DNA of 64,000 bases from NCBI GenBank assembly GCA_951406725.2, contig OX597843.1, positions 19,158,001 through 19,222,000 on the forward strand. Direction: 5' to 3'. The first letter of the stretch is position 1. Every line of letters begins with the position of its first letter. Position numbers and translations under genes: made by a program. This DNA is from Octopus vulgaris (taxonomy: Eukaryota). The notes under the pieces are model-generated. The model did not search any database. It saw only the letters and a program-made list of their open reading frames with translations, and was not told where the DNA came from. Below are positions 672 through 50,807 of this stretch, piece by piece.

Positions 672-684
672 TTTATGCAGAAAT

Positions 685-887
685 TCACTCTGTTTGACTT
701 AGACGTTCGAGGGCTGCATAGCACTCATATTGCTCAAGTGCTTTTATGAGTGTTTCCAATGTACGTTCCATTGGATCACAACCCCTAAACCATCTGAGGA
801 GCATCTGATAGCTCTGTTCTACTGTGTCGAAGGGATAGTCATGCCTGATCATCTCTAGTTCAACATGTCTAATTCCTAATTCCATTC
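685..887 (-). CDS. Terminal coding exon of ANK-RING-repeat-death-domain gene; C-terminal part of death domain (GMELGIRHVELEMIRHDYPFDTVEQSYQMLLRWFRGCDPMERTLETLIKALEQYECYAALERLSQTE*)
   Basis: Acceptor gtatcttttgcag|ga with a pyrimidine tract, phase 1; TGA at 685-687. Pattern LG.....I..I..D.P....EQ..QML..W......TL..L..AL matches death-domain helices 2-6. Confidence 0.9.
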
Positions 888-1076
888 CTGCAAAAGATAC
901 AAAAAGAAGAAATAATTGCAACAACATTAACAATAACACGAAAGATATGAACCGTGGGTTGTAATAAATATAACAAAGAAACTAGTAAAGAAACATGAAT
1001 AAGGTAAGACAAAGTTCTCTTTTTCTAAGAATGCTGATTAAAAAATAACAAAGTTGAAATAAGGTATAAAGATACT

Positions 1077-1325
1077 CATCATCATTTAGGGCCTACTTTT
1101 CATGCCGGCATGGGTCAGACAGTTTAATTGAAACTGGTAAGCCAGAGAGCTGCACCAAGTTCCAGTCTTATTTGGCATGGTTTTTACAGTTGGATGCCCT
1201 TCCTAATGCCAACCACTCCAAAAGTGTAATAAGTACTTTTAATGTGCCACTGGCACAGGTGCCAGTTATGTGACACAAAGATCGACCACGAATATCATAT
1301 TACTTGGCTTGAGGGGTTTTCTCAA
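1077..1325 (-). mobile_element. SINE-like repeat with (ATG)n tail
   Basis: Minus strand has gtggttggcattaggaagggcatccaactgtaaaa, a motif I recognise from widespread invertebrate SINEs, and ends in atgatgatg. Confidence 0.45.
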
Positions 1326-1399
1326 ACATGGCATATCGCCAAAGGTCTCCATCACTTATTATTGCCGTGATGAGGTGCTTCACCACCTCATGCCATGTC

Positions 1400-3800
1400 T
1401 TCTTGGGTCAGCTCTATCCACAGGTTTCCTCCCCATTTAGAGACAGGCACTTTTTTTACATCGGCTCCCCTCATCCATATGCAGCACACAACCATAGCAG
1501 TGCATTTGTCTCTCTTGAACACCAGATCTGATGCCTCTCACTCCCAACTTATTTGTACATGCATACTGACATTGCGCATCCACCAAAACATACTAGATTC
1601 ATTTCTTTCAAGCCTACACATGTCCTCAGCAGTCACAGCCCGTGTTTCACTGCCGTGTAGTATGGCTGTTTGCACAGAAGCATCATACAGTCTGCTTTTA
1701 ATTCGGAGGGAGAGGCCCTTTGTTACCAACAGAGGTAGGAGCTCTCTGAACTCTACCCAGTCTATTCTTATTCTAGCAGCTATATTCTCAGAGCACCCAC
1801 CTCAACTGCTGACTTGGTCACCCAGATAATGGAAGGTATACACTACTTATAAGTATTTGCCCTGCCATTTCATGGAATCTATTTTCTGTACATTTCTAGA
1901 ATTTATTGAATCTGTGCACATTCCACACACAAAATCTATTTTCACTGTTAACCTTCCTCTTATGTGTCCATAGCTAACATTGGGTACATCTTAAGGAGTT
2001 TATACACCTTTTCTACAGATCTTGCAGGGCCATCAACCTAAAGAGCTGCATTCCTACTTACTAAGACTTTCATTTTTGCTAGATTAACTCTAAGGCTCCT
2101 TGATTCTATACCTTTTTTCCACAACTGAAATTTCTTTAGTTATGGAAATGATTTGACTATAAGAAAAAGGTCATCAACATAGAGGAGCTCCTAGGGGAAG
2201 CCTTAAATTCCTCTGATATTATCTGGAGGACTATCATGAACAAGAGGGGGCTGAGGACCAATCCTTGGTGAACCTCTAATTGTTCCCTGAATTCATCACT
2301 ATACTCGTTTCCAACCCTCACCTTACTGACAGCATCCGTGTACATGGCTCTCACCAACCACTCCTCTATCCCTGCTTTCCACATTGATCACCAGATAAGG
2401 GAGAGGGGAACCCTTTGAAGGTTTTCTCCATCTCAGCAAAAGACAAGTATAGAGGTTTCTCTTTGGCTATGTATTTCTCTTGCAGTTGCCCTGCCAGATA
2501 TATAGTATCAGTGGTGCTTCTCCCTGGCACAAAACCAAACTGCATCTCATCTAGACTAGCTCTCCTCCTAATTAGTTGAGCTCTGATCCTCTCCATAACT
2601 TTCATCACCTGATCCAGCAACTTGATACCTCTGTAATTATTTCTATCTAAGGCATCACTTTTACCTTTGTAGCAGTTGACTATGGTGCTGCTACACCAGT
2701 CATTGGGTATGGCTCCTTCGTGAAGCACCTGATTTACCTATGGGTGACTAGATCATAACCCACACCACCAGATATTTTAAGCATCTCAGTGGGGATTCCT
2801 GATGAGCCAAGGGCTGTGCTCATCTTCATATCCTCCATGGCTTTAACTACCATGTTACTGTCTAATCAAATTGCTGGTTCTCCTGTTGGATCCACATTAG
2901 GCAGACACTCCTTTTCCCATTAATTCTCTACATTAAGAAGCCTTTCGTGGTGGCACTTCCAAGCCTCTTTCTTTGCAGAGTCACTAACTGCAAGAGAATC
3001 ATCGTCAATGCAAACACACTTCTCTCCAACAACACCACATTTTCCCCTGGCATACTGTTTTGTAAGACGTTGGCAAATGTCTTCTTTTCTACTTCCCTTC
3101 TGGCTAAGTATACCTGCTTCTTAGCTTCCCTTCTTGCTGCCTGATAAAACTCTTTGTTACCACCATCCTTCCAGTACTTCCAAGCCTGTTTCTTTGTTCT
3201 AATAGCCCTGTCAACTAACTGTACCACCACCATGTCACCCTAGACCTGGTTTGGACTTTGCATAAACCACTAATTTGGTCTGTGACTCGCAGCAAATTGT
3301 TTCATAGAAACCTCCAGTTATCCTCTATTTTGCAAGGCTGTAGCCCCTCCTCCTTCTCATCAAATGCTTTAATTAGAACATCTCTAAATCTCTGGCTATT
3401 CAAAGAAACTTAAGCTTCCATATCCTTCTTTTCCAAACTAGCTTGCTTCTTGGAATCCTTTGTGCCACTAACTTGAAGTCACTAATGAGTAACCCATGCT
3501 GAGGGGTATATTCTCCTCCAGGGAAGGACTTTGCATCTATGAGCAACCATGATTACACCTTTCTGTAGTCAATCTTGCTAGCATGGTCACCAGATTTATA
3601 GGTTTTCGGGTGACTAGCTGGTTTTCTGAAGTTGGTGTTTCAAATCAGTAGCTCATTTGTATCACAGAACTCCAACGGCCTTGTTCCCTTCTCATTTTGG
3701 GAACCAATCCCAAGGCTCCCATGCACCCTGAGGAAGACACCTGCTTGCTACCCGACAGGTTCATTGAAATCACCAGTTACAAAGGAAAGTAACTGAAAAT
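1400..3800 (-). mobile_element. Decayed RTE-clade LINE (endonuclease + RT)
   Basis: ORF fragments IPNDWCSSTIVNCYKGKSDALDRNNYRGIKLLDQVMK..QFGFVPGRSTTD, VHQGLVLSPLLF and KSRLYDASVQTAILHGSET; multiple frameshifts. Confidence 0.9.
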
Positions 3801-5814: not shown

Positions 5815-7631
5815 CAATATAAAACAAACCAAAACTTTGTCATTAACTCACCTGTCTACCCTTAAACAACATATTTTACTTTTCTCTTCCAAAAGATAAT
5901 ATTAACATTATTTGTGTTTTTTTTGTTTATCCATTATTACCAGCTCTTTGGATATTTTCTGGAATTTCAGTGATATCGATTTGTTTAACTTTTGTTATTA
6001 TACAGCTAACCTATCAATTAGACATTAGGAATGGAACCTGTTCTCAGTCATTTTAACAGACAGGTGAAAGTAATATTTATAGAAATCTTTTAGGTATTGT
6101 TATTCTATACTCACCCACAAACATCCAACCACTTCCTAATTGCATAGCCACTGTGTGAAGATGGATCTCTGTCAGCATTACCTTCTCTGAAATAAATATT
6201 TCCAAAGTTTATAATTTATAGTAAAATTTCTTTATTTCTATAAATAATCTAGGGTTTAACAGGCATTTCTATCAACAATGGTCAACTGGTGGCCATTATG
6301 GCTTGGTCAATATTGTTATACTTTCTAATATACTAATATTAACTCTATTGTCTTCTGAATTGTCCATTTTATAAGCCATGCTAACCACGCTGGATATTTT
6401 CTGGAATTTTAGGAATATCAATATGTTTAATAGAATTATTATACAGCTAATCTTTCAATTGGGAATTAGGATGATGTCTTCTCTCAATTTAGATACATCA
6501 TTTCTAACGACTGACCGAGAGGATATTATGTAGACCCCTGTGTCACGGGTCAACAGTTCAAATCTAGCCCCAAGCACTGCACTACGTTCCTGGTAGAAAC
6601 ATCTCACCTTAGTAAATGTTTAACTAGATGGTAATCTTGAATTTTAACTGTCCCAATTCACAGGTCACCACTATGTCCTCTGAATCAGTTGATATTTGTT
6701 ATGTAGAGAGGAACGAAAGGATTTCAAATGAGAAATGCAATACTGTGATGTTCATGCCTTTCCAAATGATATTTGCAATGCAAAGGGAAATGAAAGGGTG
6801 ATCTGAAGGGGTTTTGTCCTAGGGAGGTTTTGTCTGGGTCCCATAAATTGTGACTCTTTTACCTAGCCAAAATTTTGACCTTATTACTGTGACTTTTTTC
6901 TTGTGATTTCATTACTGGTCACCAGTTTTACAATTCTTTCTGTATTCTATAACTGTCACATTTTAGAAACATTTCTCACGGCACCAGCACACTTTCCGTG
7001 AATTTTTTACAAGTCCAGCTAGTATTTTATTATTGTGAGATGTTCCTATGATCAATGGTCAACTGGTGACCAATGTGTTTTTTGACACTACTTTTATATT
7101 TTCTACAGTAGTACCACCACAGAATAGACTAACCTTCCTAAACCTCTTCTCTCAAGTAAGATATTCTACATAATCCTAACAATATATCAATTATCTTCTT
7201 TATCACTACCAGATGAAAATACTATTCTAGTTTTCTTTTTCTAGTCTTGTACCTGTACAAAATCAATGACAAGTATTTCTACTCTAACTTCTAGAATTCC
7301 GTAACCGACATTCTTCTAATTTGCAGCTTAATTCGAATGTCAATCAAGTCGGTCCTCCAAAGATCAAGCCACAATATCATGACACACCTCTTGAAATAAG
7401 ACAAAACATACACCTGATCTCTTTGTTGAGGGTTGCAGCCTGCAATCTTTTATTTTAACTGTCCCACATCACAGGTCAAGACTATGTCCTCTGAAGCAAG
7501 AAATATTTGGATGTCATTCATCTTCCTTAATGACTCTACCCAGGTGGAGCAGGGGATGATGACAGGTATCCCAAAAATGCTTCAGTATAATTGCACAAAA
7601 CTTCATCAACTACACATCCCTCACCCTACCG
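5815..7631. repeat. Older, diverged relatives of the array unit surrounding the 72-nt death-domain exon
   Basis: 5820-6114 aligns by eye to 10050-10334; 6187-6330 to 10389-10520; 7050-7631 to 7632-8230. Also 5444-5586 is duplicated at 6470-6613. Confidence 0.8.
6115..6186 (-). CDS. 72-nt internal exon, death-domain helix 1-2 ((E)KVMLTEIHLHTVAMQLGSGWMFV(G))
   Basis: atttatttcag|ag ... tgg|gtgagt; phase 1-1. Joins in frame to exon 685-887 and supplies the conserved L..VA..LG..W..VG.ELG motif. Confidence 0.88.
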
Positions 7632-8249
7632 CATCAATGTTCCACAAATGACCGCTATGGGTTTGGACAACATTGTTATAATTGCTACAGTGGTACCAAA
7701 ACAAACGAAAGTAACCTTCCTGAACCTCTTTCTTCTACTAAGACATTCTGCATTATCCTATCTTTGTAGCCATTATTTTATTTAATTATTATCACTTGAC
7801 AATAATTCTTTTCTACCTTTGTCTTTCCTGTCTCATATCTCTGCCAAATCAATGGCAGGGCATTCTTCACTCACCTCTCGACTTCACTAACAAGCATCCT
7901 TCGTACTTCCTGCTTTATTGCAATATCAATCAAAATGGTTCTCCAAAGATCTACTTACAAAATCCTGACACACCCCATCAAGCAGGATGAACATACACCT
8001 GCTCTCTTTAATGAACTTTGCTAACGGTTATCTTGAAAGTCAACAGTTCCACAGAGCAAATCACCGGGATATTCTCTGAATGGAAAAACAGTTGAAGACA
8101 TTTGGATGTCATTCATCTTCCTTAATGACTCTACCCAGGTGGAACAGGGGATAATGACAGGTATCCCAAAAATGCTTCAATATAATTGCATAAAACTTTA
8201 TCAACTACACATCCCTCTCCCTACCCGCATTATTGCACTGAAAATACTT

Positions 8250-9300
8250 TAAATGCTACACAGGAAGCGAGACTCAAACAAACATAAAGAAGATCGGGAT
8301 AGACACCCAGCAGCAATCCCCAGATCTTGTATTTGCCCACAAGCTTTGTCTTATCTGTTGCTTGTAACCAATCCTCAGTCTGTGCCATCATCTGAATGCC
8401 TCTACTCTCACTCAACAACAGAGCTTAACATCGTCCGAAACATTTTACAGGACAGTCTTTAACATTTGGCATGGATTCTTCTGCAAATTGGAACTTCACT
8501 TGCTTCAGGGCATCTTTCATAAATGGTAGACTGAATTATTTATTTGCTTGAAACCGCTTTACTCACCAAGTACCTAGCCAGTCCAGAAGTAATTGCATAT
8601 CCTTATCGTCTGTTTTTAGCTTGGTTATGTCATTCGTTAAGGCCTTCTTATGCGATTGCCATTCGGATCAATCTACTGATCAATGTAACTTATCCATAAA
8701 AAGCACAAACTAAATGACGGACATTGTACAACCTACAGTAATTCCATTTCCAAGAAAATGCCAGTCTGTTGTGAAGTCTGCTGTTATTAGCCGTGTTATG
8801 AAACTGTTGCAGTGACTCCTAATTAGATCTGTCATCTTCTCCAGTTTATAAAATCGATTACTGCCATCAGCAATTTCTGTTGTAGAGAAACATAAGCAGG
8901 AACTGGATAGAGCCATACAACATTCAAATCTCTTTTATTCTCCATTTTCTCTCCTATGGCATTCCATGTGGAACATGGATGTTCCATATGCCCAGGAATT
9001 TAGAAGATTCTAGTCTTATGCACACTTTCAGTCCCATAGCAAAATTATTTTATAGGTTTGTAGCTGATCTTTTAACAAGTACATCTATGTAAATGATGCC
9101 GTCTACTATTACAATTAAAATGGGTCTCAAGTGGTCGCTTAGTTCTGCTTTAGCATCCTCTGGTAAGTAAACTCTGTCTGCCTTGCACCAGTCATCAACC
9201 AGTTCGCCAAAAAGCCACAGCTCTCTCACTCTTGGTACAGCTTATAATTTAATTGAGTTCAGTACTTGTACTTGCACTCTAAACTTTTGTCTTCTTCATT
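8250..9300 (-). mobile_element. Decayed HERO-like (R2 superfamily) non-LTR reverse-transcriptase fragment; repeated in every array unit
   Basis: Broken frames read DDWCKADRVYLP..LRPIS, GHMEHP..WNAI..KRDLNVVWL, FTTDWHFLGNGITVGCTMSVI and WLQAIDKTKLVGKYKIW, resembling HERO RT motifs; many stops and frameshifts. Boundaries approximate. Confidence 0.65.
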
Positions 9301-10334
9301 AAAATTATACACTTCTTTCCTACTAAAACCACCAAGCTGAAATTTCAATGCTGCTCAAATTGGCTGCTCCAAACTAGCCATAAGTGGAAACGATTGACGT
9401 CGCCTTCGCTCACTCAACGTTTCCTGTATATTCCTAGCTTTGCTGCATTTTGGCTGGCGGATCTTAACATCTGCAAACTGCTTTCTATATAAGGGCCCTT
9501 AATGAGAAACTCTCTAATTTGTTTAACCTCTGAAATCTCTTTGCATAAGTTAGAGAGGAACAGTTATTCTTCTTGAGGACATAGCAATTTTTCTAGTGCT
9601 TGTAGCAGAATAAAATGTATCAAGAACCCTTTAGAATATGGTAGAAATTAGGAATAGCAAAACAGCAAGAGTAAGGTAGAACGTTTAAATGAAATATATT
9701 CTCCAAGGAAGGAAGTTGGGCAGTACCTCTGAATAAAAACTCACTTGGACAGTGACCACCACTCCAAAACATGGCAACATGGAAAGCAGATGATAAATAA
9801 TGAGCACAATATCGGAGATTGTATTGTGTCTTATAGCCAGTATCCACCTTGAAATGAGAGAGAGAGAGTAAGAGACTGCGCTTATCTCAGAAGCAAACCA
9901 AACTCTTGCACTTGCATATGAACAATGAATTTAATAATAGATTTACTATCAGTGCAAAATGATATGGAATTTGAAATGGGAACACTTTCCATCTCAAGTC
10001 TGCCAGAATATGGCATGAGGCTGAACAACAACAATAAACTATCAAAAAAATATAAAACAAACAAAAACACTGTGCTTAGCTCATTTGTTTACCCCTAAAC
10101 AACAACATATTTTATTCCCCTATTCCAATAGGCATTATTAACCATATTGTCTCTGCTAATCTCAGCGGTTATCCCTGAGAGTTCAGTAACTCTCTTTAAT
10201 ATTATTAATTTAAGGTTAACCATTCAAGTGGAAATTACAAATGGAACCTGACCTTACTCAATCTGACAAACCAAGAAACTCAGGTGAAGGCAACATTTAC
10301 AGAAAACAATAAAATCTTGTTATTTAATACTCAC

Positions 10335-10388
10335 CGATTGTGCTATGTGCCACTTGCTGGTCTTCCTTGTCTTCTGCTTTTGGAGTTG
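10335..10388 (-). CDS. 54-nt micro-exon, copy 1 (xTPKAEDKEDQQVAHSTI)
   Basis: tttatttcag|ca ... tcg|gtgagt; symmetric phase 1-1, no stop; in frame with the death-domain exons. Confidence 0.72.
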
Positions 10389-13170
10389 CTGAAATAAATA
10401 TTTCTCATTATAGTATAATTTGGTTAATTATCTTAATAATCTATATTCTATTATTGTGAAACTTTTCTTCCATCAATGTTCCACAAATGACCGCGATGGG
10501 TTTGGACAACATTTTCATACTTGCTACAGTGGTACCAAAACAAACGAAAGTAACCTTCCTGAACCTCTTTCTTCTACTAAGACATTCTGCATAATCCTAT
10601 CTTTGAAGCCATTATCTTATTTAATTATTACCACTTGACAAAAATGCTTTTCTACTTTTGTCTTTCCTGTCTTATATCTCTGCCAAATCAATGGCATGGC
10701 ATTCTTCACTCACCTCTCGACTTCACTAACAAGCATCCTTCATACTTCCTGCTTTACTGCAATATCAATCAAAATGGTCCTCCAAAGATCTACATACAAA
10801 ATCCCGACACACCCCATCAAGCAGGATGAACATACACCTGCTCTCTTTAATGAACTTTGCTAACGGTTATCTTGAAAGTCAACTGTTCCACAGAGCAAAT
10901 CACCGGGATATTCCCTGAATGGAAAAACAGTTAAAGACATTTGGATGTCATTCATCTTCCTTAATGACTCTACCCAGGTGGAACAGGAGATGATGACAGG
11001 TATCCCAAAAATGCTTCAATATAATTGCTCAAAACTTCATCAACTACACATCCCTCTCCCTACCCGCATTATTGCACTGAAAATACTTTAAATGCTACAC
11101 AGGAAGCGAGACTCAAACAAACATAAAGAAGATCGGGATAGACACCAAGCAGCAATCCCCAGATCTTGTATTTGCCCACAAGCTTTGTCTTATCTATTGC
11201 TTGTAACAAATCCTCAGTCTGTGCCATCATCTGAATGCCTCTACTCTCACTCAACAACAGAGCTTAACATCGTCCTAAACATTTTACAGGACAGTCTTTA
11301 ACATTTGGCAGGGATTCTTCTGCAAATTGGAAATTCACTTGCTTCAGGGGATCTTTCATAAATGGCAGACTGAATTATTCATTTGCTTGAAACCCCTTTA
11401 CTCACCAAGTACCTAGCCACTCCACAAGTAATTGCATATCCTTATGGTCTGTTTTTAGCTTGGTTATGTCATTCGTTAAGGCCTTCTTATGCAATTGCCA
11501 TTCGGATCAATCTACTGATCAATGTAACTTATCCATAAAAGGCACAAACTAAATGACGGACATTGTACAACCTACAGTAATTCCATTTCCAAGAAAATGC
11601 CAGTCTGTTGTGAAGTCTGCTGTTATTAGCCGTGTTATGAAATTGTTGCAGTGTCTACTAATTAGATCTGTCATCTTCTCCAGTTTATAAAATCGATTAC
11701 TGCCATCAGCAATTTCTGTTTTAGAGAAACATAAGTAGGAACTGGATAGAGCCATACGACATTCAAATCTTTTTTATTCTCCATTTTCTCTCCTATGGCA
11801 TTCCATATGGAAAATGGATGTTCCATATGCCCAGTAATTTAGAAGAGCTAGGGTTATGCACACTTTCAGTCCGATAGCAAAATTTTTTTATAGGTTTCTA
11901 GCTGATCTTTTAACAAGTACATCTATGTAAATGTTGCCGTCTACTTTTACAATTAGAATGGGTCTCAACTGGTCGGTTAGTTCTGCTTTAGCATCCTCTG
12001 GTAAGTAAACTCTGTCTGCCTTGCACCAGTCATCAACCACTTCACCAATAAGCCACAGCACTCTCACTCTTGGTACAGCTTATAATTTAATTGAGTACAG
12101 TACTTGTACTTGCACTCTAAACTTTTGTCTTCTTCATTAAAATTATACACTTCTTTCTTGCTGAAACCAACAAGTTGAAATTTCATTGCTGCTCAAATTG
12201 GCTGCTCCAAACTAGCCATGAGTCGAAACGGTTGACGTCGCCTTCGCTCACTCAACGTTTCCTGTATATTCCTAGCTTTGCTGCATTTTGGCTGGCGGAT
12301 CTTAACATCTGCAAACTGCTTTCTATATAAGGGCGCTTAATGAGAAACACTCTAATTTGTTTAACCTCTGAGATCTCTTTGCATAGGTTAGAGAGGAACA
12401 GTTATTCTTCTTGAGGACATAACAATGTTTCTAGTGCTTGTGGCAGAATAAAATGTATCCAGAACCCTTTAGAATATGGTAGAAATTAGGAATGGCAAAA
12501 CAGCACGAGTAAGTTAGAACGTTTAAATGAAATATATTCTCCAAGGAAGGAAGTTGGGCAGTACCTCTGAATAAAAACTCACTTGGACAGTGACCACCCA
12601 TCCAAAACATGGCAACATGGAAAGCAGATGATAAATAATGAGCACAATATCGGAGATTGTATTGTGTCTTATAGCTAGTATCCACCTTGAACAGAGACAG
12701 AGAGTAAGAGACTGCGCTTATCTCAGAAGCAAACCAAACTCTTGCACTTGCATATGAACAATGAATTTAATAATAGATTTACTATCAGTGCAAAATGATA
12801 TGGAATTTAATATGGGAACACCTTCCATCTCAAGTCTTCCAGAATATGGCATGAGGCTGAACAACAACAATAAACTGTCAGAAAAATATAAAACAAACAA
12901 AACCACTGTGCTTAGCTCATTTGTTTACCCCTAAACAACAACATATTTTATTCCCCTATTCCAAAAGGCATTATTAACCATATTGTCTCTGCTAATCTCA
13001 GCGGTTATCCCTGAAAGTTCAGAAACTCTCTTTAATATTATTAATTTAAGGTTAACCATTCAAGTGGAAATTACAAATGGAACCTGACCTTACTCAATCT
13101 GACAAACCAAGAAACTCAGGTGAAGGCAACATTTACAGAAATCAATAAATTCTTGTTATTTAATACTCAC

Positions 13171-13224
13171 TTCTTGCGCTATGTGGCACTTGCTGGTCTT
13201 CCTTGTCTTCTGCTTTTGAAGTTA
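13171..13224 (-). CDS. 54-nt micro-exon, copy 2 (xTSKAEDKEDQQVPHSAR)
   Basis: ttcag|ta ... gaa|gtgagt; phase 1-1, open frame. Confidence 0.7.
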
Positions 13225-16000
13225 CTGAAATAAATATTTCTCATTATAGTATAATTTGGTTAATTATCTTAATAATCTACTTTCTATTATTGTGAAACTT
13301 TTCTTCCATCAATGTTCCACAAATGACCGCTATGGGTTTGGACAACATTTTCATACTTGCTACAGTGGTACCAAAACAAACGAAACTAACCTTCCTAAAC
13401 CTCTTTCTTCTACTAAGACATTCTGCATAATCCTATCTTTGTAGCCATTATCTTATTTAATTATTCCCACTTGAAAATAATGCTTTTCTACTTTTGTCTT
13501 TCCTGTCTTATATCTCTGCCAAATCAATGGCATGGCATTCTTCACTCACCTCTCGACTTCACTAACAAGCATCCTTCTTACTTCCTGCTTTATTGCAATA
13601 TCAATCAAAATGGTCCTCCAAAGATCTACATACAAAATCACGACACACCATCAAGCAGGATGAACATACACCTGCTCTCTTTAATGAACTTTGCTAACGG
13701 TTATCTTGAAAGTCAACTGTTCCACAGAGCAAATCACCGGGATATTCCCTAAATGGAAAAACCATTGAAGACATTTGGATGTCATTCATCTTCCTTAATG
13801 ACTCTACCCAGGTGGAACAGGGGATGATGACAGGTATCCCAACAATGCTTCAGTATAATTGCACAAAACTTCATCAACTACACATCCCTCTCCCTACTCG
13901 CATTATTGCACTGAAAATACTTTAAATGCTACACAGGAAGCGAGACTCAAACAAACATAAAGACGATCGGGATAGACACCAAGCAGCAATCCCCAGATCT
14001 TGTATTTGCCCACAAGCTTTGTCTTATCTATTGCTTGTAACCAATCCTCAGTTTGTGCCATCATCTGAATGCCTCTACTCTCACTCAACAACATAGCTTA
14101 ACATCGTCCTAAACATCTTACAGGACAGTCTTCAACATTTGGCATGGATTCTTCTGCAAATTGGAACTTCACTTGCTTCAGGGCATCTTTCATAAATGGC
14201 AGACTGAATTATTTATTTGCTTGAAACCCCTTTACTCACCAAGTACCTAGCCAGTCCACAAGTAATTGCATATCCTTTTCGTCTGTTTTTAGCTTGGTTA
14301 TGTCATTCGTTAAGGCCTTCTTATGCGATTGCCATTCGGATCAATCTACTGATCAATGTAACTTATCCATAAAAAGCACAAACTAAATGACGGACATTGT
14401 ACAACCTACAGTAATTCCATTTCCAAGAAAATGCCAGTCTGTTGTGAAGTCTGCTGTTATTAGCCGTGTTATGAAACTGTTGCAGTGACTCCTAATTAGA
14501 TCTGTCATCTTCTCCAGTTTATAAAATCGATTACTACCATCAGCAATTTCTGTTTTAGAGAAACATAAGCAGGAACTGGATAGAGCCATACAACATTCAA
14601 ATCTCTTTTATTCTCCATTTTCTCTCCTATGGCATTCCATGTGGAAAATGGATGTTCCATATGCCCAGGAATTTAGAAGAGCTAGGGTTATGCACACTTT
14701 CAGTCCCATTGCAAAATTATTTTATAGGTTTGTAGCTGATCTGATAACAAGTACATCTATGTAAATGTTGCCGTCTACTTTTACAATTGAAATGGGTCTC
14801 AAGTGGTCAGTTAGTTCTGCTTTAGCATCCTCTGGTAAGTAAACTCTGCCTGTCTTGCACTAGTCTCTACCAGTTCGCCAATAAGCCACAGCTCTTTCAC
14901 TCTTGGTACAGCTTATAATTTAATTGAGTACAGTACTTGTACTTGCACTCTAAACTTTTGTCTTCTTCATTAAAATTATACACTTCTTTGTTGCTGAAAA
15001 CAACAAGTTGAAATTTCAATGCTGCTCAAATTGGCTGCTCCAAACTAGCCATGAGTGGAAACTGTTGACGTCGCCTTCGCTCACTCAACGTTTCCTGTAT
15101 ATTCCTAGCTTTGCTGCACTTTGGCTGGCGGATCTTAACATCTGCAAACTGCTTTCTATATAAGGGCCCTTAATGAGAAACACTCTAATTTGTTTAACCT
15201 CTGAGATCTCTTTGCATAAGTTAGAGAGGAACAGTTATTCTTCTTGAGGACATAACAATGTTTCTAGTGCTTGTGGCAGAATAAAATGTATCCAGAACCC
15301 TTTAGAATATGGTAGAAATTAGGAATGGCAAAACAGCACGAGTAAGTTAGAACGTTTAAATGAAATGTATTCTCCAAGGAAGGAAGTTGGGCAGTACCTC
15401 TGAATAAAAACTCACTTGGACAGTGACCACCCATCCAAAACATGGCAACATGGAAAGCAGATGATAAATAATGAGCACAATATCGGAGATTGTATTGTGT
15501 CTTATAGCCAGTATCCACCTTGAACAGAGACAGAGAGTAAGAGACTGCGCTTATCTCAGAAGCAAACCAAACTCTTGCACTTGCATATGAACAATGAATT
15601 TAATAATAGATTTACTATCAGTGCAAAATGATATGGAATTTGAAATGGGAACACTTTCCATCTTAAGTCTTCCAGAATATGGCATGAGGCTGAACAACAA
15701 CAATAAACTGTCAGAAAAATATAAAACAAACAAAACCACTGTGCTTAGCTCATTTGTTTACCCCTAAACAACATATTTTATTCCCCTATTCCAATAGGCA
15801 TTATTAACCATATTGTCTCTGCTAATCTCAGCGGTTATCCCTGAGAGTTCAGTAACTCTCTTTAATATTATTAATTTAAGGTTAACCATTCAAGTGGAAA
15901 TTACAAATGGAACCTGACCTTACTCAATCTGACAAACCAAGAAACTCAGGTGAAGGCAACATTTACAGAAAACAATAAAATCTTGTTATTTAATACTCAC

Positions 16001-33116: not shown

Positions 33117-35902
33117 CTGAAATAAATATTTCTCATTATAGTATAATTTGGTTAATTATCTTAATAATCTATATTCTATTATTGTGAAACTTCTCTACCA
33201 TCAATGTTCCACAAATGACCGCTATGGGTTTGGACAACATTTTCAAACTTGCTACAGTTGTACCATAACAATCGAAAGTAACCTTCCTAAACCTCTTTCT
33301 TCTACTAAGACATTCTGCATAATCCTATCTTTGTAGCCATTATCTTATTTAATTATTATCACTTGACAATAATACTTTTCTACTTTTGTCTTTCCTGTCT
33401 CATATCTCTGCCAAATCAATGGCATGGCATTCTTCACTCACCTCTCGACTTCACTAACAAGCATCCTTCTTACTTCCTGCTTTACTGCAATATCAATCAA
33501 AATGGTCCTCCAAAGATCTACATACAAAATCCTGACACACCCCATCAAGCAGGATGAACATACACCTGCTCTCTTTAATGAACTTTGCTAACGGTTATCT
33601 TTAATGTCAACTGTTCCACAGAGCAAATCACCGGGATATTCCCTGAATGGAAAAACAGTTAAAGACATTTGGATGTCATTCATCTTCCTTAATGACTCTA
33701 CCCAGGTGGAACAGGGGATGATGACAGGTATCCCAAAAATGCTTCAATATAATTGCACAAAACTTCATCAACTACACATCCCTCTCCCTACCCGCATTAT
33801 TGCACTGAAAATACTTTAAATGCTACACTGGAAGCGAGACTCAAACAAACATAGAGACGATCGGGATAGACACCCAGCAGCAATCCCCAGATCTTGTATT
33901 TGCCCACAAGCTTTGTCTTATCTATTGCTTGTAACCAATCCTCAGTTTGTGCCATCATCTGAATGCCTCTACTCTCACTCAACAACATAGCTTAACATCG
34001 TCCTAAACATTTTACAGGACAGTCTTTAACATTTGCCATGGATTCTTCTGCAAATTGGAACTTCACTTGCTTCAGGGGATCTTTCATAAATGGCAGACTG
34101 AATTATTCATTTGCATGAATCCCCTTTACTCACCAAGTACCTAGCCAGTCCACAAGTAATTGCATATCCTTATCGTCTGTTTTTAGCTTGGTTATGTCAT
34201 TCGTTAAGGCCTTCTTATGCGATTGCCATTCGGATCAATCTACTGATAAATGAAACTTATCCATAAAAGGCACAAACTAAATGACGGACATTGTACAACC
34301 TACAGTAATTCCATTTCCAAGAAAATGCCAGTCTGTTGTGAAGTCTGCTGTTATTAGCCGTGTTATGAAACTGTTGCGTTTGACTCCTAATAAGATCGGT
34401 CATCTTCTCAAGTTTATAAAATCGATTACTGCCATCAGCAATTTCTGTTGTAGAGAAACATAAGCAGGAACTGGATAGAGCCATACAACATTCAAATCTC
34501 TTTTATTCTCCATTTTCCCTCCTATGGCATTCCATGTGGGAAAGGGATATTCCATATGCCCAGGAATATAAAAGATTCTAGTCTTATGCACACTTTCAGT
34601 CCCATAGCAAAATTATTTTATAGGTTTGTAGCTGATCTGATAACAAGTACATCTATGTAAATGTTGCCGTCTACTTTTACAATTGAAATGGGTCTCAAGT
34701 GGTTGGTTAGTTCTGCTTTAACATCCTCTGGTAAGTAAACTCTGTCTGCCTTGCACCAGTCATCAACCAGTTCGCCAATAAGCCACAGCTCTCTCACTCT
34801 TGGTACAGCTTATAATTTAATTGAGTACAGTACTTGTACTTGCACTCTAAACTTTTGTCTTCTTCATTAAAATTATACACTTCTTTCTTGCTGAAACCAC
34901 CAATTTGAAATTTCATTGCTGCTCACATTGGCTGCTTCAAACTAGCCATGAGTGGAAACGGTTGACGTCGCTTTGGCTCACTCAAGGTTTCCTGTATATT
35001 CCTAGCTTTGCTGCATTTTAGCTGGCTGATTTTAACATCTGCAAACCGCTTTCTATATAAGGGCCCTTAATGAGAAACTCTCTAATTTGTTTAACCTCTG
35101 AGATCTCTTTGCATAGGTTAGAGAGAAACAGTTATTCTTCTTGAGGACATAACAATGTTTCTAGTGCTTGTGGCAGAATAAAATGTATCAAGAACCCTTT
35201 AAAATATGGTAGAAATTAGGAATGGCAAAACAGCACGAGTAAGTTAGAACGTTTAAATGAAATGTATTCTCTAAGGAAGTAATTTGGGCAGTACATCTGA
35301 ATAAAAACTCACTTGGACAGTGACCACCCATCCAAAACATGGCAACATGGAAAGCAGATGATAAATAATGAGCACAATATCGGAGATTGTATTGTGTCTT
35401 ATAGCCAGTATCCACCTTAAACAGAGAGACAGAGAGTAAGAGACTGCGCTTATCTCAGAAGCAAACCAAACTCTTGCACTTGCATATGAACAATGATTTT
35501 AATAATAGATTTAATATCAGTGCAAAATGATATGGAATTTGATATGGGAACACTTTCCATCTTAAGTCTGCCAGAATATGGCATGAGGCTGAACAACAAC
35601 AATAAACTATCAGAAAAATATAAAACAAACAAAAACAATATGCTTAGCTCATTTGTTTACCCCTAAACAACAACATAATTTATTCCCCTATTCCAAAAGG
35701 CATTTTTAACCATATTACCTCTGCTAAACTCAGCGATTATCCCTGAAAGTTCAGTAACTCTCTTTAATATTATTAAATTAAGGTTAACCTTTCAAGTGGA
35801 AATTACAAATGGAACCTGACCTTACTCAATCTGACAAACCAAGAAACTCCTGTGAAGGCAACATTTACAGAAATCAATAAATTCTTGTTATTTAATACTC
35901 AC

Positions 35903-35956
35903 TTCTTGCGCTATGTGCCACTTGCTTCTCTTCCTTGTCTTCTGCTTTTGGAGTTG
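35903..35956 (-). CDS. 54-nt micro-exon, copy 10 (xTPKAEDKEEKQVAHSAR)
   Basis: ttcag|ca ... gaa|gtgagt; phase 1-1; compatible with the phase-1 end of the RING exon. Confidence 0.7.
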
Positions 35957-36819
35957 CTGAAATAAATATTTCTCATTATAGTATAATTTGGTTAATTATC
36001 TTAATAATCTATATTCTATTATTGTGAAACTTTTCTATCATCAATGTTCCACAAATGACCGCTATGGGTTTCGACGATATTTTTATAATTGCTACAGTGG
36101 TACCAAAACAATCGAAAGTAACCTTCCTAAACCTCTTTCTTCTACTAAGACATTCTGCATAATCCTATCTTTGTAGCCATTATCTTATTTAATTATTCCC
36201 ACTTGACAATAATTATTTTCTACTTTTGTCTTTCCTGTCTTATATCTCTGCCAAATCAATGGCATGGCATTCTTCACTCACCTCTCGACTTCACTAACAA
36301 GCATCCTTCGTACTTCCTCCTTTACTGCAATATCAATCAAAATGGTCCTCCAAAGATCTACTTACAAACACACACACAGACACCATTACACATTTATGCA
36401 TATAAACTTTAGATTAGCACGTTTTTTTTAATCCGCTAAATCCAAAAATAGTATTAGTTTTACAATTTGATCTTACAATATGTCACAAATTTAAGAGGGC
36501 AACCTAATTACACATCTTTTTTAGAAAATCAGTTGTCGTTGTCAAGAATGTCATATGATATGTCTTTATATATGCTTTTGACGTCAAAGAGCTCGAATTG
36601 AACGTGGAATAAACAGTTTAATGACAAATAATTAAATAATTTAATTTTACCGAAGAAAAAACATTTCTGAAGTTCTGAAATGTATATGATACAATAATAG
36701 TTTGACAACGTTTATGGCTTCAAAACCTCACACCAAGTCATCCAATGCATGATTGAAATCAATAAGGCTTACGTCTGTCTTGCAACTCACATTATTCAAG
36801 TAAATGTTCAAATTTCTTA

Positions 36820-38654: not shown

Positions 38655-38754
38655 NNNNNNNNNNNNNNNNNNNNNNNNNNNNNNNNNNNNNNNNNNNNNN
38701 NNNNNNNNNNNNNNNNNNNNNNNNNNNNNNNNNNNNNNNNNNNNNNNNNNNNNN
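38655..38754. other. Assembly gap (100 N, true size unknown)
   Basis: Run of exactly 100 n. Confidence 1.
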
Positions 38755-41700
38755 TTATAATGATATCTATCTAGATTGTATATAATCTGGCAAAGGGATA
38801 TGTGACCGTCATTATAATGATATCTATCTAGATTGTATATAATCTGGCAAAGGGATATGTGACCGTCAATATAATGATATCTATGTAGATTGTATATAAT
38901 CTGGCAAAGGGATATGTGACCGTCATTATAATGATATCTATCTAGATTGTATATAATCTGGCAAAGGGATATGTGACCGTCATTATAATGATATCTATCT
39001 AGATTATGTATAATCTGTAAAAGGGATATGTGACCGTCATTATAATGATATCTGTCTAGATTGTATATAATCTGGCAAAGGGTTATGTGTCCGTCATTAT
39101 AATGATATCTGTCTAGATTGTATATAATCTGGCAAAGGGATATATGACTGTCATTATAATGATATCTATCTAGATTATATATAATCTGGCAAAGGGATAT
39201 ATGACCTTCATTATAATGATATCTATCTAGATTGTATATTATCTGGCAAAGGGATATGTGACCGTCATTATAATGATATCTGTCTAGATTGTATATAATC
39301 TGGCAAAGGGATATGTGACCGTCATTATAATGATATCTGTCTAGAATGTATATAATCTGGCAAAGGGATATGTGACAGTCATTATAATGATATCTATCTA
39401 GATTGTATATAATCTGCCAAAGGGATATGTGACCGTCATTATAATGATATCTATCTAGATTGTATATAATCTGGCAAAGGGATATGTGACCGTCATTATA
39501 ATGATATCTATCTAGATTGTACATAATGTGGCAAAGGGATATGTGACCGTCATTATAATGATATCTATTTAGATTATACATAATCTGGCAAAGGGATATG
39601 TGACCGTCATTATAATGATATCTATCTAGATTGTATATAATCTGGCAAAGGGATATGTGACGTCATTATAATGATATCTTCTTATATAATGCAAAGATTG
39701 TATATATGATATTGACCTTCATAATAAGGATATCTATCTAGATTGTATATAATCTGGCAAAGGGATATGTGACCGTCATTATAATGATATCTATCTAGAT
39801 TGTATATTATCTGGCAAAGGGATATGTGACCGTCATTATAATGATATCTGTCTAGATTGTATATAATCTGGCAAAGGGATATGTGACCGTCATTATAATG
39901 ATATCTATCTAGATTGTATATAATCTGGCAAAGGGATATGTGACCGTCATTATAATGATATCTGTCTTGATTGTATATAATCTGGCACAGGTATATGTGA
40001 CCGTCATTATAATGATATCTATCTTGATTGTATATAATCTGGCAATGGGATATGTGACCTTCATTATAATGATATCTGTCTAGATTGTATATAATCTGGC
40101 AAAGGGATATGTGACCGTCATTATAATGATATCTATCTAGATTATATCTAATCTGGCAAAGGGATATGTGACCATCATTATAATGATATCTATCTAGATT
40201 GTATATAATCTGGCAAAGGGATATGTGTCCGTCATTATAATGATATCTGTCTAGATTGTATATAATCTGGCAAAGGGATATGTGACCGTCATTATAATGA
40301 TATCTATCTAGATTATATATAATCTGGCAAAGGGATATATGACCGTCATTATAATGATATCTATCTAGATTGTATATTATCTGGCAAAGGGATATGTGAC
40401 CGTCATTATAATGATATCTATCTAGATTGCATATAATCTGGCAAAGGGTATGTGACCCTCATGATAATGATATCTGTCTAGATTGTATATAATCTGGCAA
40501 AGGGATATGTGACCGTCATTATAATGATATCTATCTAGATTGTATATAATCTGGCAAAGGGATATGTGACCGTCATTATAATGATATCTATACAGATTGT
40601 ATATAATCTGGCAAAGGGATATGTGACCGTCATTATAATGATATCTATCTAGATTGTATATAATCTGTCAAAGGGATATGTGACCGTCATTATAATGATA
40701 TCTGTCTAGATTGTATATAATCTGGCAAAGGGATATGTGACCGCCATTATAATGATATCTGTCTAGATTGTATATAATCTGGCAATGGGATGTGACCGTC
40801 ATTATAATGATATTTATCTAGATTGTATATAATCTGGCAAAGGGATATGTGATCGTCATTATAATGATATCTATCTAGATTTTATATAATCTGGCAAAGG
40901 GATATGTGACCGTCATTATAATGATATCTATCTATATTGTATATAATCTGGCAAAGGGATATGTGACCGCCATTATAATATCTATACAGATTGTATATAA
41001 TCTGTCAAAGGGATACGTGACCGTCATTATAATGATATCTGTCTAGATTGTATATAATCTGGCAATGGGATGTGACCGTCATTATAATGATATCTATCTA
41101 GATTGTATATAATCTGGCAAAGGAATATGTGATCGTCATTATAATGATATCTATCTAGATTTTATATAATCTGGCAAAGGGATATGTGACCGTCATTATA
41201 ATGATATCTATCTAGATTGTATATAATCTGGCAAAGGGATATGTGACCGTCATTATAATGATATCTATCTAGATTGTATATAATCTGGCAAAGGGATATA
41301 TGACCGTCATAATAATGATATCTATACAGATTGTATATAATCTGGCAAAGGGACACGTGGCCCTCATTATAATGATATCAATAAAGATTGTATATAATCT
41401 GGCAAAGAAATATGTTACTATCATTGTAATTATAAATATATAATACGTATATAATCTGTTAATTGTATATGTGACCTACATTATAATGTTATCTATATAG
41501 ATTGTATATAATCTGGCAAAGGGACACGTGGCCCTCATTATAATGATATCAATAAAGATTGTATATAATCTGGCAAAGAAATATGTTACTATCATTGTAA
41601 TTATAAATATATAATCCGTATATAATCTGATAAATGTATACGTGACCACCATTATAATGTTATCTCTATCTAGATTGTATATAATCTGGCAAAGGGATAT

Positions 41701-42875
41701 GTGACCGTCATTATAATGATATCTATCTAGATTGTATATAATCTGGCAAAGGGATATGTGACCGTCATTATAATGATATCTATCTAGATTGTATATAATC
41801 TGGCAAAGGGATATGTGACCGTCATTATAATGATATCTATCTAGATTGTATATAATCTGGCAAAGGGATATGTGACCGTCATTATAATGATATCTATCTA
41901 GATTGTATATAATCTGGCAAAGAAATATATTACCGTCATTATAATGATATCTATCTAGATTGTATATAATCTGGCAAAGGGATATGTGACCGTCATTATA
42001 ATGATATCTATCTAGATTGTATATAATCTGTTAAAGGGACACGTGACCGTCATTATAATGATATCTATCTAGATTGTATATAATCTGGCAAAGGGATATG
42101 TGACCGTCATTATAATGATATCTATCTAGATTGTATATAATCTGGCAAAGGGATATGTGACCGTCATTATAATGATATCTATCTAGATTGTATATAATCT
42201 GGCAAAGGGACACGTGGCTCTCATTATAATGATATCAATAAAGATTGTATATAATCTGGCAAAGAAATATGTTACTATCATTGTAATTATAAATATATAA
42301 TCTGTATATAATCTGATAAATGTATACGTGACCACCATTATAATGTTATCTCTATAGATTGTATATAATCTGGCAAAGGGACACGTGGCCCTCATTATAA
42401 TGATATCAATAAAGATTGTATATAATCTGGCAAAGAAATATGTTACTATCATTGTAATTATAAATATATAATCTGTATATAATCTGATAAATGTATTTGT
42501 GACCACCATTATAATGTTATCTCTATAGATTGTATATAATCTGGCAAAGGGACACGTGGCCCTCATTATAATGATATCAATAAAGATTGTATATAATCTG
42601 GCAAAGAAATATGTTACTATCATTGTAATTATAAATATATAATCTGTATATAATCTGATAAATGTATTTGTGACCATCATTATAATGGTATCTCTATAGA
42701 TTGTATATAATCTGGCAAAGGGACACGTGGCCCTCATTATAATGATATCAATAAAGATTGTATATAATCTGGCAAAGAAATATGTTACTATCATTGTAAT
42801 TATAAATATATAATCTGTATATAATCTGATAAATGTATTTGTGACCACCATTATAATGGTATCTCTATAGATTGT
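38755..42875. repeat. 57-bp minisatellite (~72 copies), with 171-bp (3x57) higher-order blocks at ~41330-41670 and ~42190-42875
   Basis: Consensus tataatgatatctatctagattgtatataatctggcaaagggatatgtgaccgtcat; abuts the gap. Confidence 0.97.
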
Positions 42876-44269
42876 TATATTATCTGACTTTATTTCCTAT
42901 TGCTTCTATCTAATCAGTTGATTAAAACAAGGTCTACTTATATTTCAAGGGGCCAGCCTTTTCACTTTCTGTATTATGCTGAATCTTCCTGAGAACTACA
43001 TTTAGTGTACTCACATCTTTGGAGTACTCAGCTACTTTCATAGTAATTTCATTAGCAGGCTGTTTCATTGATTGGAAATCTGGTACTCTCATCATCCTAA
43101 CCAATGGAGTGCTATTTTGAACAGTTGATATTATGGCAGTTCCATGAGGAATCACAGAAGAATGGTACCAAGTCCAGCACCAAATACTAACAATAATTTC
43201 TTTTATCAGTCAAAAACAACGACCAGGTTCCATGATCTAATTTAAATGTAAGAATTAATTCGGGGCAAAAACGTAAAAGACACAGAAAAGTGTGTTTGTA
43301 TTAACATTAATATAATCTAAAACCCAATAAGAATGAGCATAAATATGGATGGTAAGTGTTATCCAAACTTTGTAGTAAGTGTTAAATATAGTTACAAACA
43401 AAGAGTTGTGTGTTCAGTTTACATTTGGGACTATTATTTTATTTCTATAAACGTGAATACAAACACTTTGTTTAAACATAGACACACATTCAACGGTTCA
43501 ATACTAATTTAACATTCAATAAAAATAATTGAATGATCAATATTGTTGGAGTGAATTTCGTAATTTTCTTTTCATTTATTACAATACATATTGCAATCTG
43601 AGATATTCTGGGTACATACCACAAGGGACAACATTTCATATCAAACATCAGACTAATGTAATTTTTGGAGCTCTTCATAAGATGACAAATTATGGAGAAT
43701 TTCTGGAGGACAATTTTTCGTTGAAACTATCGATGCTATCTTTCACTAAATAAATATTAACAGCAACACAAAACAACTAACAATCAAAGTCTCTAACGTT
43801 GTTCCTTAATCTCTCAGTTGAGATTTCCTCATTGAATCTCCTATTTTACCAAAAATTGATGTTCTTGTAACTAACTTTGTTTTTAGCTATCAGATTCACA
43901 AGATACTCATAAATCAGTAATCACCTCTAATCACTTGCAATTGATATTAAAAAATTGATATTTCCTGATAAAAGCCAGGAATATTATTGATATTTCTGTT
44001 AGTCACTGTTTAACTTCCAGTATCCCTCACTTGTCTCCTTTTGCAGACAGCAACCTCGTGAAGTGGAGCAAACCTTGTACTGGGACAAAATCAAAATTTA
44101 GTGGATGGGGTGATTGATATAGTATCACAAAGAGAAGACATCTAGAACACCTTTTATCATAAATGTGTCAGCTTATGACAGACCTAGATCTGCACAACAA
44201 TATAAAGTACATTATTCACCATCGTAAAGCCAATGAGACAAACAGACAGATCATAAAATTGTATCTTAC

Positions 44270-44412
44270 CACGTATATTATAACTTTCTATAGGTTTTTG
44301 ACACTTGGGACAAACATGAGGCTGCGTATCTTCATAGCACTTTCTGCATATAACTTTGTCTCCACATGGTAACAACGTCACAGAAACTTCTTTAACACCA
44401 CACAGCAGACAA
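44270..44412 (-). CDS. RING-finger exon (CLLCGVKEVSVTLLPCGDKVICRKCYEDTQPHVCPKCQKPIESYNIR), MIB/IAP-type RING-HC
   Basis: tttctgttttgttccacag|t ... cgtg|gtaaga; phase 2 in, phase 1 out; C-x2-C-x11-C-x-D-x3-C-x2-C-x8-C-x2-C. Confidence 0.88.
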
Positions 44413-46330: not shown

Positions 46331-46429
46331 TTCTTGTGAGTTCTCTGCTTAAAGTTATATATGGCTATCATACGTCCACACTTAGAGTTTTATCACTCTT
46401 TAATTGTTCCCTTTTCTGTCTGTCTGTCT

Positions 46430-47470
46430 TTTATGCCAGGAAAACTAAAAGCTATCCTAACCTTTCCACACCCCACCACAAGCAAGGCTCTACATCAATT
46501 CGTGGGCGTGGTAAACTTTTACTATCACTTTATCCCTTCTGCAGCAAAAGTGATGAGGACCCTATACAAGGCACTGTCAAAAGAGGGTTCAAAACGGCAG
46601 GTGGGGTGAGATGACTTCAGCCTTCAAATCCACAAAACAAGCCCTGACTCAAGCAAACTTGCTGTCCCATCCTCATATGTCCGCTTGGATTGAACTCACA
46701 TTCACGCATCCGACACAGCCATTGGGGACGTTTTGGAATAACACATCAACAGTCAGTGGCGACTGCTCGCCTTCTTCAGCCGACATCTATGACCCCATGA
46801 ACAGAAATACAGTGCTTTTGACAAGGAACTACTGGCTGTTCATCTAGATGTCTGCCACTTTCGCTATTTCCTTGAAGCTCGCACATTTACAGTATTCACA
46901 GGTCACAAACCCCTCACCTTCGCTATGAGCAAGCTCTTGGAACCTTGGCCTGCACGCCAGCAATGACAGTTATCAGCAATTTCTGAGTACACAACAGACA
47001 TCCAACACATAGCCGGCAAGGGCAACCTAGTTGCCGACACATTCTCTCATGCTCCTACTCGCTCTCACACCTACCTAGCACCAATAACAGAAGGCCTGGA
47101 TTACGAAGCTATGGTTGCAACCCAACGGGCAGATGAGGAGATCAGGGCCTACCGCATTGCCATCACATCACTTTCTTAGCAGGATGTACACTTTGGCTCT
47201 AACGGCACAACCCTACTGTGTGACGTATTCACTGGGAAGACATGACCGAATTCTCCAATCAGCCTGGCGCAAGAGAGTTTTCCACATCATTCGTGGATTT
47301 TCCCACCCAGGTACTAAAGCCACACGGCGGCTGCTGTCAAGCAAATTTATCTGGCACAGTATAGCCAAGAAAATTGGGGAGTGGACCAGGTCCTGCGACC
47401 CCTGTCAACAAGCCAAAGTCCATCAACATACCAAAGCACCCCTCAGCAACTATGAACCACCTCAAAACAA
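46430..47470 (+). mobile_element. Ty3/Gypsy pol fragment (RT thumb, RNase H, integrase Zn-finger)
   Basis: LHQFVGVVNFYYHFIP, YSAFDKELLA, HKPLTFA and HPGTKATRRLLSSKFIW...CDPCQQAK; frameshifted, no LTRs seen. Confidence 0.88.
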
Positions 47471-48203
47471 AAGAATATCAACAGTGAGTGTGAAACAAAT
47501 TTGAACGAAACAGAAATAAGTGGCGACTTAAGCCCAGGTGTAGGTCAAGTAATAAACCTTTTGGTAAACGTATTCTCATCTTCACTAGTTTGTTTGCGTA
47601 TAGCTTAACAAAGCTATAAAAGCTTAATTGGAATGCAATAACATCTTGTAAACAACATTTTGTTTTGGGAAGCGTCAAATGTGTTTTTTATTATACAAAC
47701 AAGAAAGTGATATTTCTTACATACACACATATTGTTAGCGTGTATTTGTAGAAGATTTTTCTTTTATGAAACCTCACATAATGATGACCGATTTGGACAA
47801 AGAAGAAGCAGAAAAACTTGTTGGTAGACAAATTCCACTTCTAAGTAACAATTTCATAATGTGTCCATTCACTTCATTATTTAATACTACATTCTTTCTG
47901 GTGGTCACAGAACTTTGAAATAGTGATTTAAGAGATATATGTTGGGGGTGGGGGAGGTCTGCAAGCTATAACTATCAATACAACCAATCATGTGACTATT
48001 ATCAAAATAGTGTTCTTTGTTTGACCCCCTAACAAATGTATTTTCCATTTATTGTTCTTACTGTTATTGTGTAGTTTTTAGTCAAGACACTAGTGACAGT
48101 ATAATTTATTGGTAGAATGAACACAACACAATACATATAAACTTGGTTATGTACAAAATTGAAGATTCACTGATTTACATTGTCTTTGCCATGGAATACT
48201 TAC

Positions 48204-48376
48204 AACGATGGGAAAAGCTCTTTTATTTTCTCTTGATAATCGGACACTATGAGATCTACTGGGGTCTTCCCAGAATTGTTTTTTTGGTGAAAGTTTGCTC
48301 CCAAACGACCTAGATAGCAAGCAATAACGGTGCCACATAGCTTGTCTTCTTTTTCCAATCGAAGCCTTTTCCAGAA
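48204..48376 (-). CDS. Exon with last ankyrin repeat of a Mind-bomb(MIB)-like E3 ligase (FWKRLRLEKEDKLCGTVIACYLGRLGANFHQKNNSGKTPVDLIVSDYQEKIKELFPS(F))
   Basis: gttatcattttcag|ttc ... gtt|gtaagt; 173 nt, phase 0 in and phase 2 out, matching the RING exon. IACYL...GA.....N..G.TP.DL resembles the final ankyrin repeat that precedes the RINGs in MIB1/MIB2 (from memory, not a search). Confidence 0.85.

Positions 48377-50773: not shown

Positions 50774-50807
<34 letters not shown>

Follow-up and report, generated by a model that had tools for sequence, protein, structure and literature searches.

The 64,000-nucleotide (nt) stretch of Octopus vulgaris DNA described here (assembly GCA_951406725.2, contig OX597843.1, positions 19,158,001 to 19,222,000; hereafter the window, with positions counted from its first letter) carries on its minus strand the 3' part of a gene that very probably encodes a single spliced protein composed of ankyrin repeats, a RING finger, a repetitive spacer and a death domain. 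Joined by script, the 14 exons form an open reading frame of 1131 nt and 376 residues with a single terminal stop, all 13 introns have a GT donor and an AG acceptor, and the phases chain as 0-2, 2-1, ten times 1-1, 1-1 and 1-stop, which bears out the places, splice sites and phases listed in an initial annotation made from the sequence alone. The first exon in the window (48204..48376, phase 0-2) encodes the last ankyrin repeat, with an extended helix of the Mind bomb (MIB) type, and is followed by the RING exon (44270..44412, phase 2-1), which is of the C3HC4 type with an Asp at the His-ligand position and a C-P-K-C-Q end. Next comes a tandem array of ten exon-plus-intron units of about 2.83 kb each (7632..36368), every unit containing one 54-nt linker exon of phase 1-1: copies 1 to 5 at 35903..35956, 33063..33116, 30232..30285, 27396..27449 and 24501..24554, and copies 6 to 10 at 21664..21717, 18828..18881, 16001..16054, 13171..13224 and 10335..10388. 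Copy 5 is the most diverged, and copy 9 is identical in exon sequence to copy 6. The death domain is split between exon 13 (6115..6186, 72 nt, phase 1-1), which encodes helix 1 and a conserved Trp, and exon 14 (685..887), which encodes the remainder and the stop codon; an AATAAA at 434..439 is a candidate poly(A) signal, and three studies have contigs that stop at 424-426, a weak hint.

Both the RING and the death domain named in the initial annotation lie above their Pfam cut-offs (zf-C3HC4_3, 38.9 bits with a cut-off of 27, for the RING exon; Death, PF00531, 38.3 bits with a cut-off of 22.6, for the last exon). The ankyrin assignment stood by another route: the exon alone matches no Pfam family at E<=0.1, and its peptide shares 100% identity with residues 409-466, the last ankyrin, of the 580-residue O. 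vulgaris protein CAI9744532.1. The earlier exons of the gene sit beyond the window; in agreement with the initial annotation, tblastn of 48377-64000 gave no upstream ankyrin exon at E<1, and transposon remains are found there instead.

The gene had been called hidden, which is too strong, as CAI9744532.1, automatically named ‘MIB2-like’, already contains exons 1, 2 and 14 letter for letter, its match to the death exon, like that to the ankyrin exon, being 100%. This model comprises about 12 ankyrin motifs and the RING, after which exon 14 follows at once; the array and exon 6115-6186 are left out, so that the model is without 11 of the gene's 14 exons. A family death-domain profile built without this gene aligns over positions 1-86 of 88 (119.0 bits) when exon 6115-6186 is included, and only over positions 21-86 (91.3 bits) when it is not; the C-terminal death domain is therefore complete only with this exon and truncated in the public model. 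The O. sinensis model XP_036354722.1, which lies on a contig of 40,968 nt, has a related RING followed by the peptide of linker copy 1 and ends in intron-derived sequence of an array unit. The intron stretch that corresponds to its last exon lies at 34305-34454 on the minus strand, with equivalents in each unit, the match being unbroken in three of the ten units and split by frameshifts in seven; use of such an exon would yield a form without the death domain.

A word-based search with residues 380-580 returned two proteins only and missed the family that phmmer recovered. With the last exon, phmmer gave 55 matches, of which 22 have a RING and 15 have both ankyrins and a RING (E<=0.001), five from O. 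vulgaris, six from O. sinensis and four from O. bimaculoides. All 20 matches that were looked up, these 15 included, come from these three species, which agrees with the lineage-specific origin claimed initially; since 20 of the 55 were looked up, the taxonomic range is not fixed. A Mind-bomb-like ankyrin-RING protein with a death domain very probably exists as one gene, yet as one member of an expanded family labelled ‘MIB2-like’ (CAI9744532.1, XP_029652081.1, CAI9744105.1, XP_014776758.1 and others) and not as a sole novelty; because the architecture is already in the databases under automatic names, the gene itself is not a discovery. In six full-length members the common N-terminus lies at the first ankyrin, and the RING-linker-death order is the rule in 26 parsed proteins and isoforms. 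The O. vulgaris gene shares with the family its ankyrins, single RING, short phase-compatible linker units and clade-specific death domain. Linker units in the other models are 12-18 residues long and cassette-like, and database isoforms of several paralogs are told apart by one unit more or less, of 12, 17 or 18 residues, which suggests that cassette exons are a family trait, assuming that the gene models rest on reads. What sets this member apart is the longest linker (199 residues between RING and death domain, against 19-128 in relatives, among the 26 parsed), the Asp-ligated RING and the lack of a TQT motif in its linker. An intron open reading frame at 4505-4699 (minus strand) is nearly identical to the start of another protein, P0057, which continues into a family death domain; paralogs therefore share this intron sequence. 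No paper on an octopus or cephalopod MIB2 or ankyrin-RING-death family, or on LC8 together with a ligase in this family, was found in a literature search of partial coverage, and the family, the 14-exon structure, the exon variability and the LC8-like motifs of the paralogs appear undescribed.

Splicing was assessed with contigs from four of 24 listed runs, X1 and X2 (study P1), X5 (P2) and X8 (P3, with a second organism label), aligned to 300-10460. Past position 886, X1 record 2 and X2 record 10 each hold another 110 letters. In a 31-mer graph this is the number predicted by the full model, the annotated skip predicting 317, RING>13>14 389, RING>10>13>14 443 and a mixture of the full and annotated models 2. 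These two contigs are thus strong but indirect support for the order copy 10>exon 13>exon 14. Within the aligned region, which contains a single array exon, five of the joint rows listed go back on that exon, in four distinct forms from X2, X5 and X8 and hence three studies, and in all five the number of unaligned letters is exactly that of an exon-to-exon splice. Three of the four forms fit neighbouring copies (2>3 and 3>4 in X2, 7>8 in both X5 and X8, copy 2 being the sole copy that fits the upstream side of one X2 joint), and the fourth is a variant absent from the window. Several points weigh against a fully spliced 14-exon transcript. The runs consist of contigs whose RNA nature is a guess, the array joints fit skipping pairs as well as neighbouring ones, the 6115>887 joint is not among the joint rows listed, the RING-to-array joint lies outside 300-10460, and no contig among those aligned has all ten copies in one transcript; furthermore, the array is absent from the public O. 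vulgaris model, and the models from O. sinensis stop before the death domain. As repeats crowd the joint listing, the absence of other joints carries no information. Contigs of X2 and X8 also carry a form of the last exon that differs by 5-10%, with all four listed differences (744, 788, 809 and 830) changing the residue, and this form may be an allele or a paralog.

The proposed derivation from MIB is supported by the ankyrin domain. The MIB1 ankyrin structure 8v0e aligns without a break (66 bits) to residues 4-125 of an O. sinensis relative, through which the likeness of exon 1 is seen, and it is the only one of 60 listed chains to span the ankyrin insert of the family, the others stopping at about residue 70; the predicted structure places two inserted helices near the ankyrin end. 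Cao et al. (10.1101/2024.03.01.582834) describe an extended helix for the ninth MIB1 repeat. In the Atlas, MIB2 ranks first by structure score (TM 0.50, which is weak) and short mib1-like clusters rank first by features, whereas PDB profile and Foldseek searches are dominated by generic ankyrins, with the MIB1 ankyrin domain at rank 32. Neither the MZM module (MIB_HERC2-ZZ-MIB_HERC2) nor REP (SH3_15) was found by Pfam in CAI9744532.1 or the 55 matches, the 5' end being judged from gene models. A single RING is present, and MIB1 RING3, which carries the coiled coil, is absent from 37 PDB matches at E<=1. Judged by sequence, the gene is likely MIB-derived but stands outside MIB membership, because it is without MZM/REP and without a coiled-coil RING3. 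It shares with MIB1 and MIB2 the ankyrin solenoid with an extended-helix penultimate repeat followed by a C3HC4 RING, and differs further from both in its linker exons and C-terminal death domain.

Other known systems share parts of this architecture. Molluscan death-domain inhibitor-of-apoptosis proteins (IAPs; PMC8917759) pair a death domain with a RING, and the RING of the octopus gene is IAP-like; the IAPs carry BIR domains in place of ankyrins, with the death domain before rather than after the RING, and no BIR match was found in CAI9744532.1 or the 55 family matches. ANKDD1A/B and the ankyrins have ankyrin repeats and, at the C-terminus, a death domain (Atlas rows 17-18; the ankyrin-3 death domain is the top PDB match of one paralog) but have no RING and no exon array. 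Short ankyrin-RING proteins (arthropod mib1-like clusters of about 400 residues and plant XBAT33), which are the top Atlas feature matches, also lack MZM/REP, and no death domain is listed for them.

The nearest solved death domains of two paralogs are those of RIPK1 and ankyrin-3. In a 44-row death-domain tree, a clade (98/92) unites the family with P0055 and the tail of an O. bimaculoides leucine-rich-repeat (LRR) adhesion G-protein-coupled receptor (GPCR); the tree is midpoint-rooted with open inner forks and resolves neither the donor nor the direction of transfer. P0055 is a 267-residue low-complexity protein with a C-terminal death domain of the family clade, for which the Atlas gives, as a lead, a likeness to arthropod IMD/RIPK1-like clusters (0.90), and it includes a stretch that we take to be RHIM-like. 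The receptor model (P0042, P0090 and P0091) consists of LRR, GPS and seven transmembrane segments, a Ser/Thr/Gln-rich tail and a death domain that scores 101 bits on the family profile, against at most 45 for unrelated domains; it may be a true receptor or a fused model, and a further protein, P0008, is a mixture of RING, death and LRR pieces. P0055 and the receptor are candidate donors or partners of the death domain; a complex prediction for the death domain of the close paralog P0026 (residues 60-152) with that of P0055 gave no answer (score 0.00). MIB2 itself is reported to ubiquitylate RIPK1 and cFLIP in death-domain complexes (PMC7815719). A role of the octopus protein as an adaptor in death-domain or immune signalling is slightly favoured.

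The linkers of 11 of 18 relatives carry the motif [KR]-x-[VT]-Q-T (shuffle mean 0.14, maximum 3, in 2000 shuffles), with Asp or Glu at position -4. According to PMC6607443, LC8 binds a TQT anchor, often with Asp at -4 and a positive residue at -3, charged residues at -1 or +1 being unfavourable, and many TQT-anchor peptides do not bind. The relatives' linkers thus fit an LC8-like pattern, as in multivalent LC8 (DYNLL1) clients such as ASCIZ. The array of this gene differs, with a charged residue at -1 and no TQT-type anchor. It is 43% charged and 3% large hydrophobic, and these features suggest that it is likely a plain disordered spacer.

Four alternatives concern how the gene was assembled and what its parts do. 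The RING half and the array-plus-death half could come from neighbouring paralogs, either as two genes or through a mis-join, at the 100-N scaffold gap (38655..38754) that the initial annotation had flagged in the RING-to-array intron and that is real. The gap size is unset, and a 57-nt satellite (38755..42886, about 4.1 kb, 72.6 copies, 88% matches) abuts it on one side only; family genes are numerous and alike, the joint is unseen in the contigs aligned to 300-10460, and the ankyrin end and RING of XP_036354722.1 are just 88/105 identical to the O. vulgaris gene. This reading is nevertheless very improbable, given that the O. sinensis model places its near-identical RING and the copy-1 peptide on one 41-kb contig, that the O. 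vulgaris model joins the RING to the last exon, and that the order of domains holds throughout the family and the phases match. The origin of the linker exon is a second question. The flanks of the first death-domain exon (5816..6330) are homologous to those of the array exon over 94/130 positions upstream and 114/160 downstream (71-72%), neither score being reached in 500 shuffles; the homology runs right to both splice sites, the two exons have the same phase, and the array donor corresponds to a GT that lies within the death-domain exon, 18 nt short of that exon's own donor. The ten units also fit, in register, a profile of the first death-domain exon from 21 relatives (P 0.0002-0.018, 5000 shuffles each), better than in the 17 other registers. 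The linker exon is thus probably a shortened, decayed duplicate of the exon for death-domain helix 1. Several results count against such descent: as DNA the exon bodies are alike at 16-20/54 positions, with shuffles at 15+-3, and their alignments were matched by 167 and 119 of 500 shuffles; the profile scores of the units are negative (-6 to -14.5); and the ten copies are not independent. As the bodies are unlike and the scores negative, the claim of descent rests on the flanks and the register. If the linker exon were unrelated, the flanks would have been shared through a dispersed repeat or an old conversion that spared the exons, and flank-like sequence does occur at high depth in other contigs (joint 6230>7023, three runs). 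That alternative is unlikely in view of homology starting exactly at both splice sites, the in-register fit and the matching donor GT. Older pieces of array units, 70-83% alike, surround the first death-domain exon at 5443-7634, and related sequence is present in contigs of three runs.

The function of the RING is where the reading is least settled. As Cao et al. show, MIB1 ANK-RING1-2 is inactive and monomeric, and the coiled-coil RING3, with contacts at V965, M989, P993, I994 and R996, is the sole seat of MIB1 activity and also mediates its dimerisation; the first RING of MIB2 is dispensable (PMC7815719). The RING described here directly follows the ankyrins, as those do, has no coiled coil and ends C-P-K-C-Q where RING3 has P-I-C-R, with Ile>Lys and Arg>Gln/Glu at the positions that contact the E2 in RING3. 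The Asp in place of the His ligand recurs in the O. sinensis counterpart, whereas His is kept in all 18 readable RINGs of relatives (among 22 that bear a RING). The initial label of ubiquitin ligase is therefore doubtful, because the His ligand and two E2-contact residues are lost, and as a ligase this atypical RING is likely weak or silent. On the other side, seven Cys ligands and the Pro are retained, Asp can ligate zinc, 5/18 relatives' RINGs end in P-x-C-R, and the 26 lysines of the array are possible ubiquitin acceptors; moreover, the nearest solved RINGs are those of cIAP1/2, MEX3C and XIAP, and the active IAP ligases among them argue against a silent RING. The gene product might thus be an active MIB-like E3 recruited by its death domain, standing in for the death-domain-RING IAPs of other molluscs, which are least expanded in Octopus (PMC8917759); this we consider possible but less probable than a weak or silent RING, and activity of this particular member is equally doubtful. 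The array, in turn, could have arisen neutrally through unequal crossing-over, if any number of copies of a symmetric exon is tolerated and none has a tuned role; the gene may be drifting. Its units are mosaic, as expected from conversion or recombination (among 8646 pairs of informative intron sites, 4620 violate the four-gamete test), linker length varies widely among relatives, the array lacks the family TQT motif, and a RING ligand has changed. All ten copies, however, have retained their AG/GT sites, the 54-nt length and an open frame, and yet variability within the 2.83-kb unit is highest in the exon, mostly through amino-acid-altering changes: 16/54 exon sites vary against 333/2619 intron sites (Fisher p=0.0014), or 11 against 137 without singletons (p=0.0001), and none of 2565 sliding intron windows reaches 16 variable sites. 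The mean non-synonymous difference (pN) is 0.108 and the synonymous difference (pS) 0.043, with an intron diversity of 0.039, and the acceptor flank varies at 1/20 sites. Together with expressed-looking splices in three studies, this makes a neutral array rather unlikely. Selection, for its part, is called into question by a pS based on about 10 sites and by changes that gather at the exon ends, some as two-base blocks, and gene conversion between paralogs or splice-site tuning could mimic it. An assembly duplication was rejected, because the copies, 95.1-98.1% alike in pairs, differ by 2-5% and show copy-specific splices.

Taken as a whole, a fusion origin, an adaptor role, a weak or silent RING and an array acting as a spacer form the explanation towards which we lean, by a small margin of belief. 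In the proposed model, the ankyrin and first-RING half of a Mind bomb would have been joined to a death domain at the birth of the gene. The first death-domain exon, freely repeatable owing to its 1-1 phase, would then have been duplicated with its introns, and the duplicate would have lost 18 nt together with the conserved Trp and hydrophobic core, becoming a charged linker exon that was amplified ten times into a disordered spacer of about 180 residues. In the protein, the roughly 12 ankyrins may bind the target in place of the lost MZM/REP module, and the death domain may dock on an IMD/RIPK1-type adaptor or on the tail of a receptor whose death domain belongs to the same clade. Clustering on such a scaffold, aided by LC8 in the TQT paralogs, could take the place of the coiled coil on which MIB1 dimerisation depends, and the length and sequence of the spacer, under diversifying pressure, would tune its reach. 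A bolder and improbable extension is an undescribed, expanded Octopus family of intracellular sensors for immunity or cell death, assembled from one half of a Mind bomb plus a death domain of the IMD type. Its cassette exons, derived from the first exon of the death domain itself, would be a diversifying, splice-tunable dial whose copy number sets the reach from RING to death domain and, in paralogs, the number of LC8 dimerisation sites that turn on the ligase, and members such as this one would be LC8-free decoys.

Repeats and mobile-element debris also occur in the window. Long open reading frames in the satellite (38607-42896) were rejected as exons, being pure repeat translations, and a 48-nt inverted repeat (44679-44776, 90% complementary, 2-nt loop) precedes the RING exon by about 270 nt. 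Broken mobile elements occur at 53046-57946, 59701-60762 and 46340-47504 on the plus strand and at 51678-52554 and about 1500-3700 on the minus strand, the last being a reverse-transcriptase remnant within the final intron; the types represented are a long interspersed nuclear element (endonuclease and reverse transcriptase), a Helitron-like Pif1 helicase, a Tc1-type transposase and a long-terminal-repeat-type integrase piece.

Of the 14 exons of this gene, 11 are missing from current gene models. The locus is a clear example of a linker exon that seems to stem from a domain exon, its copies being about threefold more divergent than their introns, and the likely birth of linker exons from a death-domain exon appears undescribed; exon-level diversifying selection and splice-tuned spacing thereby become directly testable. 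Little has been mapped of innate immunity and cell-death control in cephalopods, a group with few IAPs, and, if the reading given here is true, this mislabelled and lineage-expanded Octopus family would supply candidate regulators of IMD/RIPK1-type signalling.

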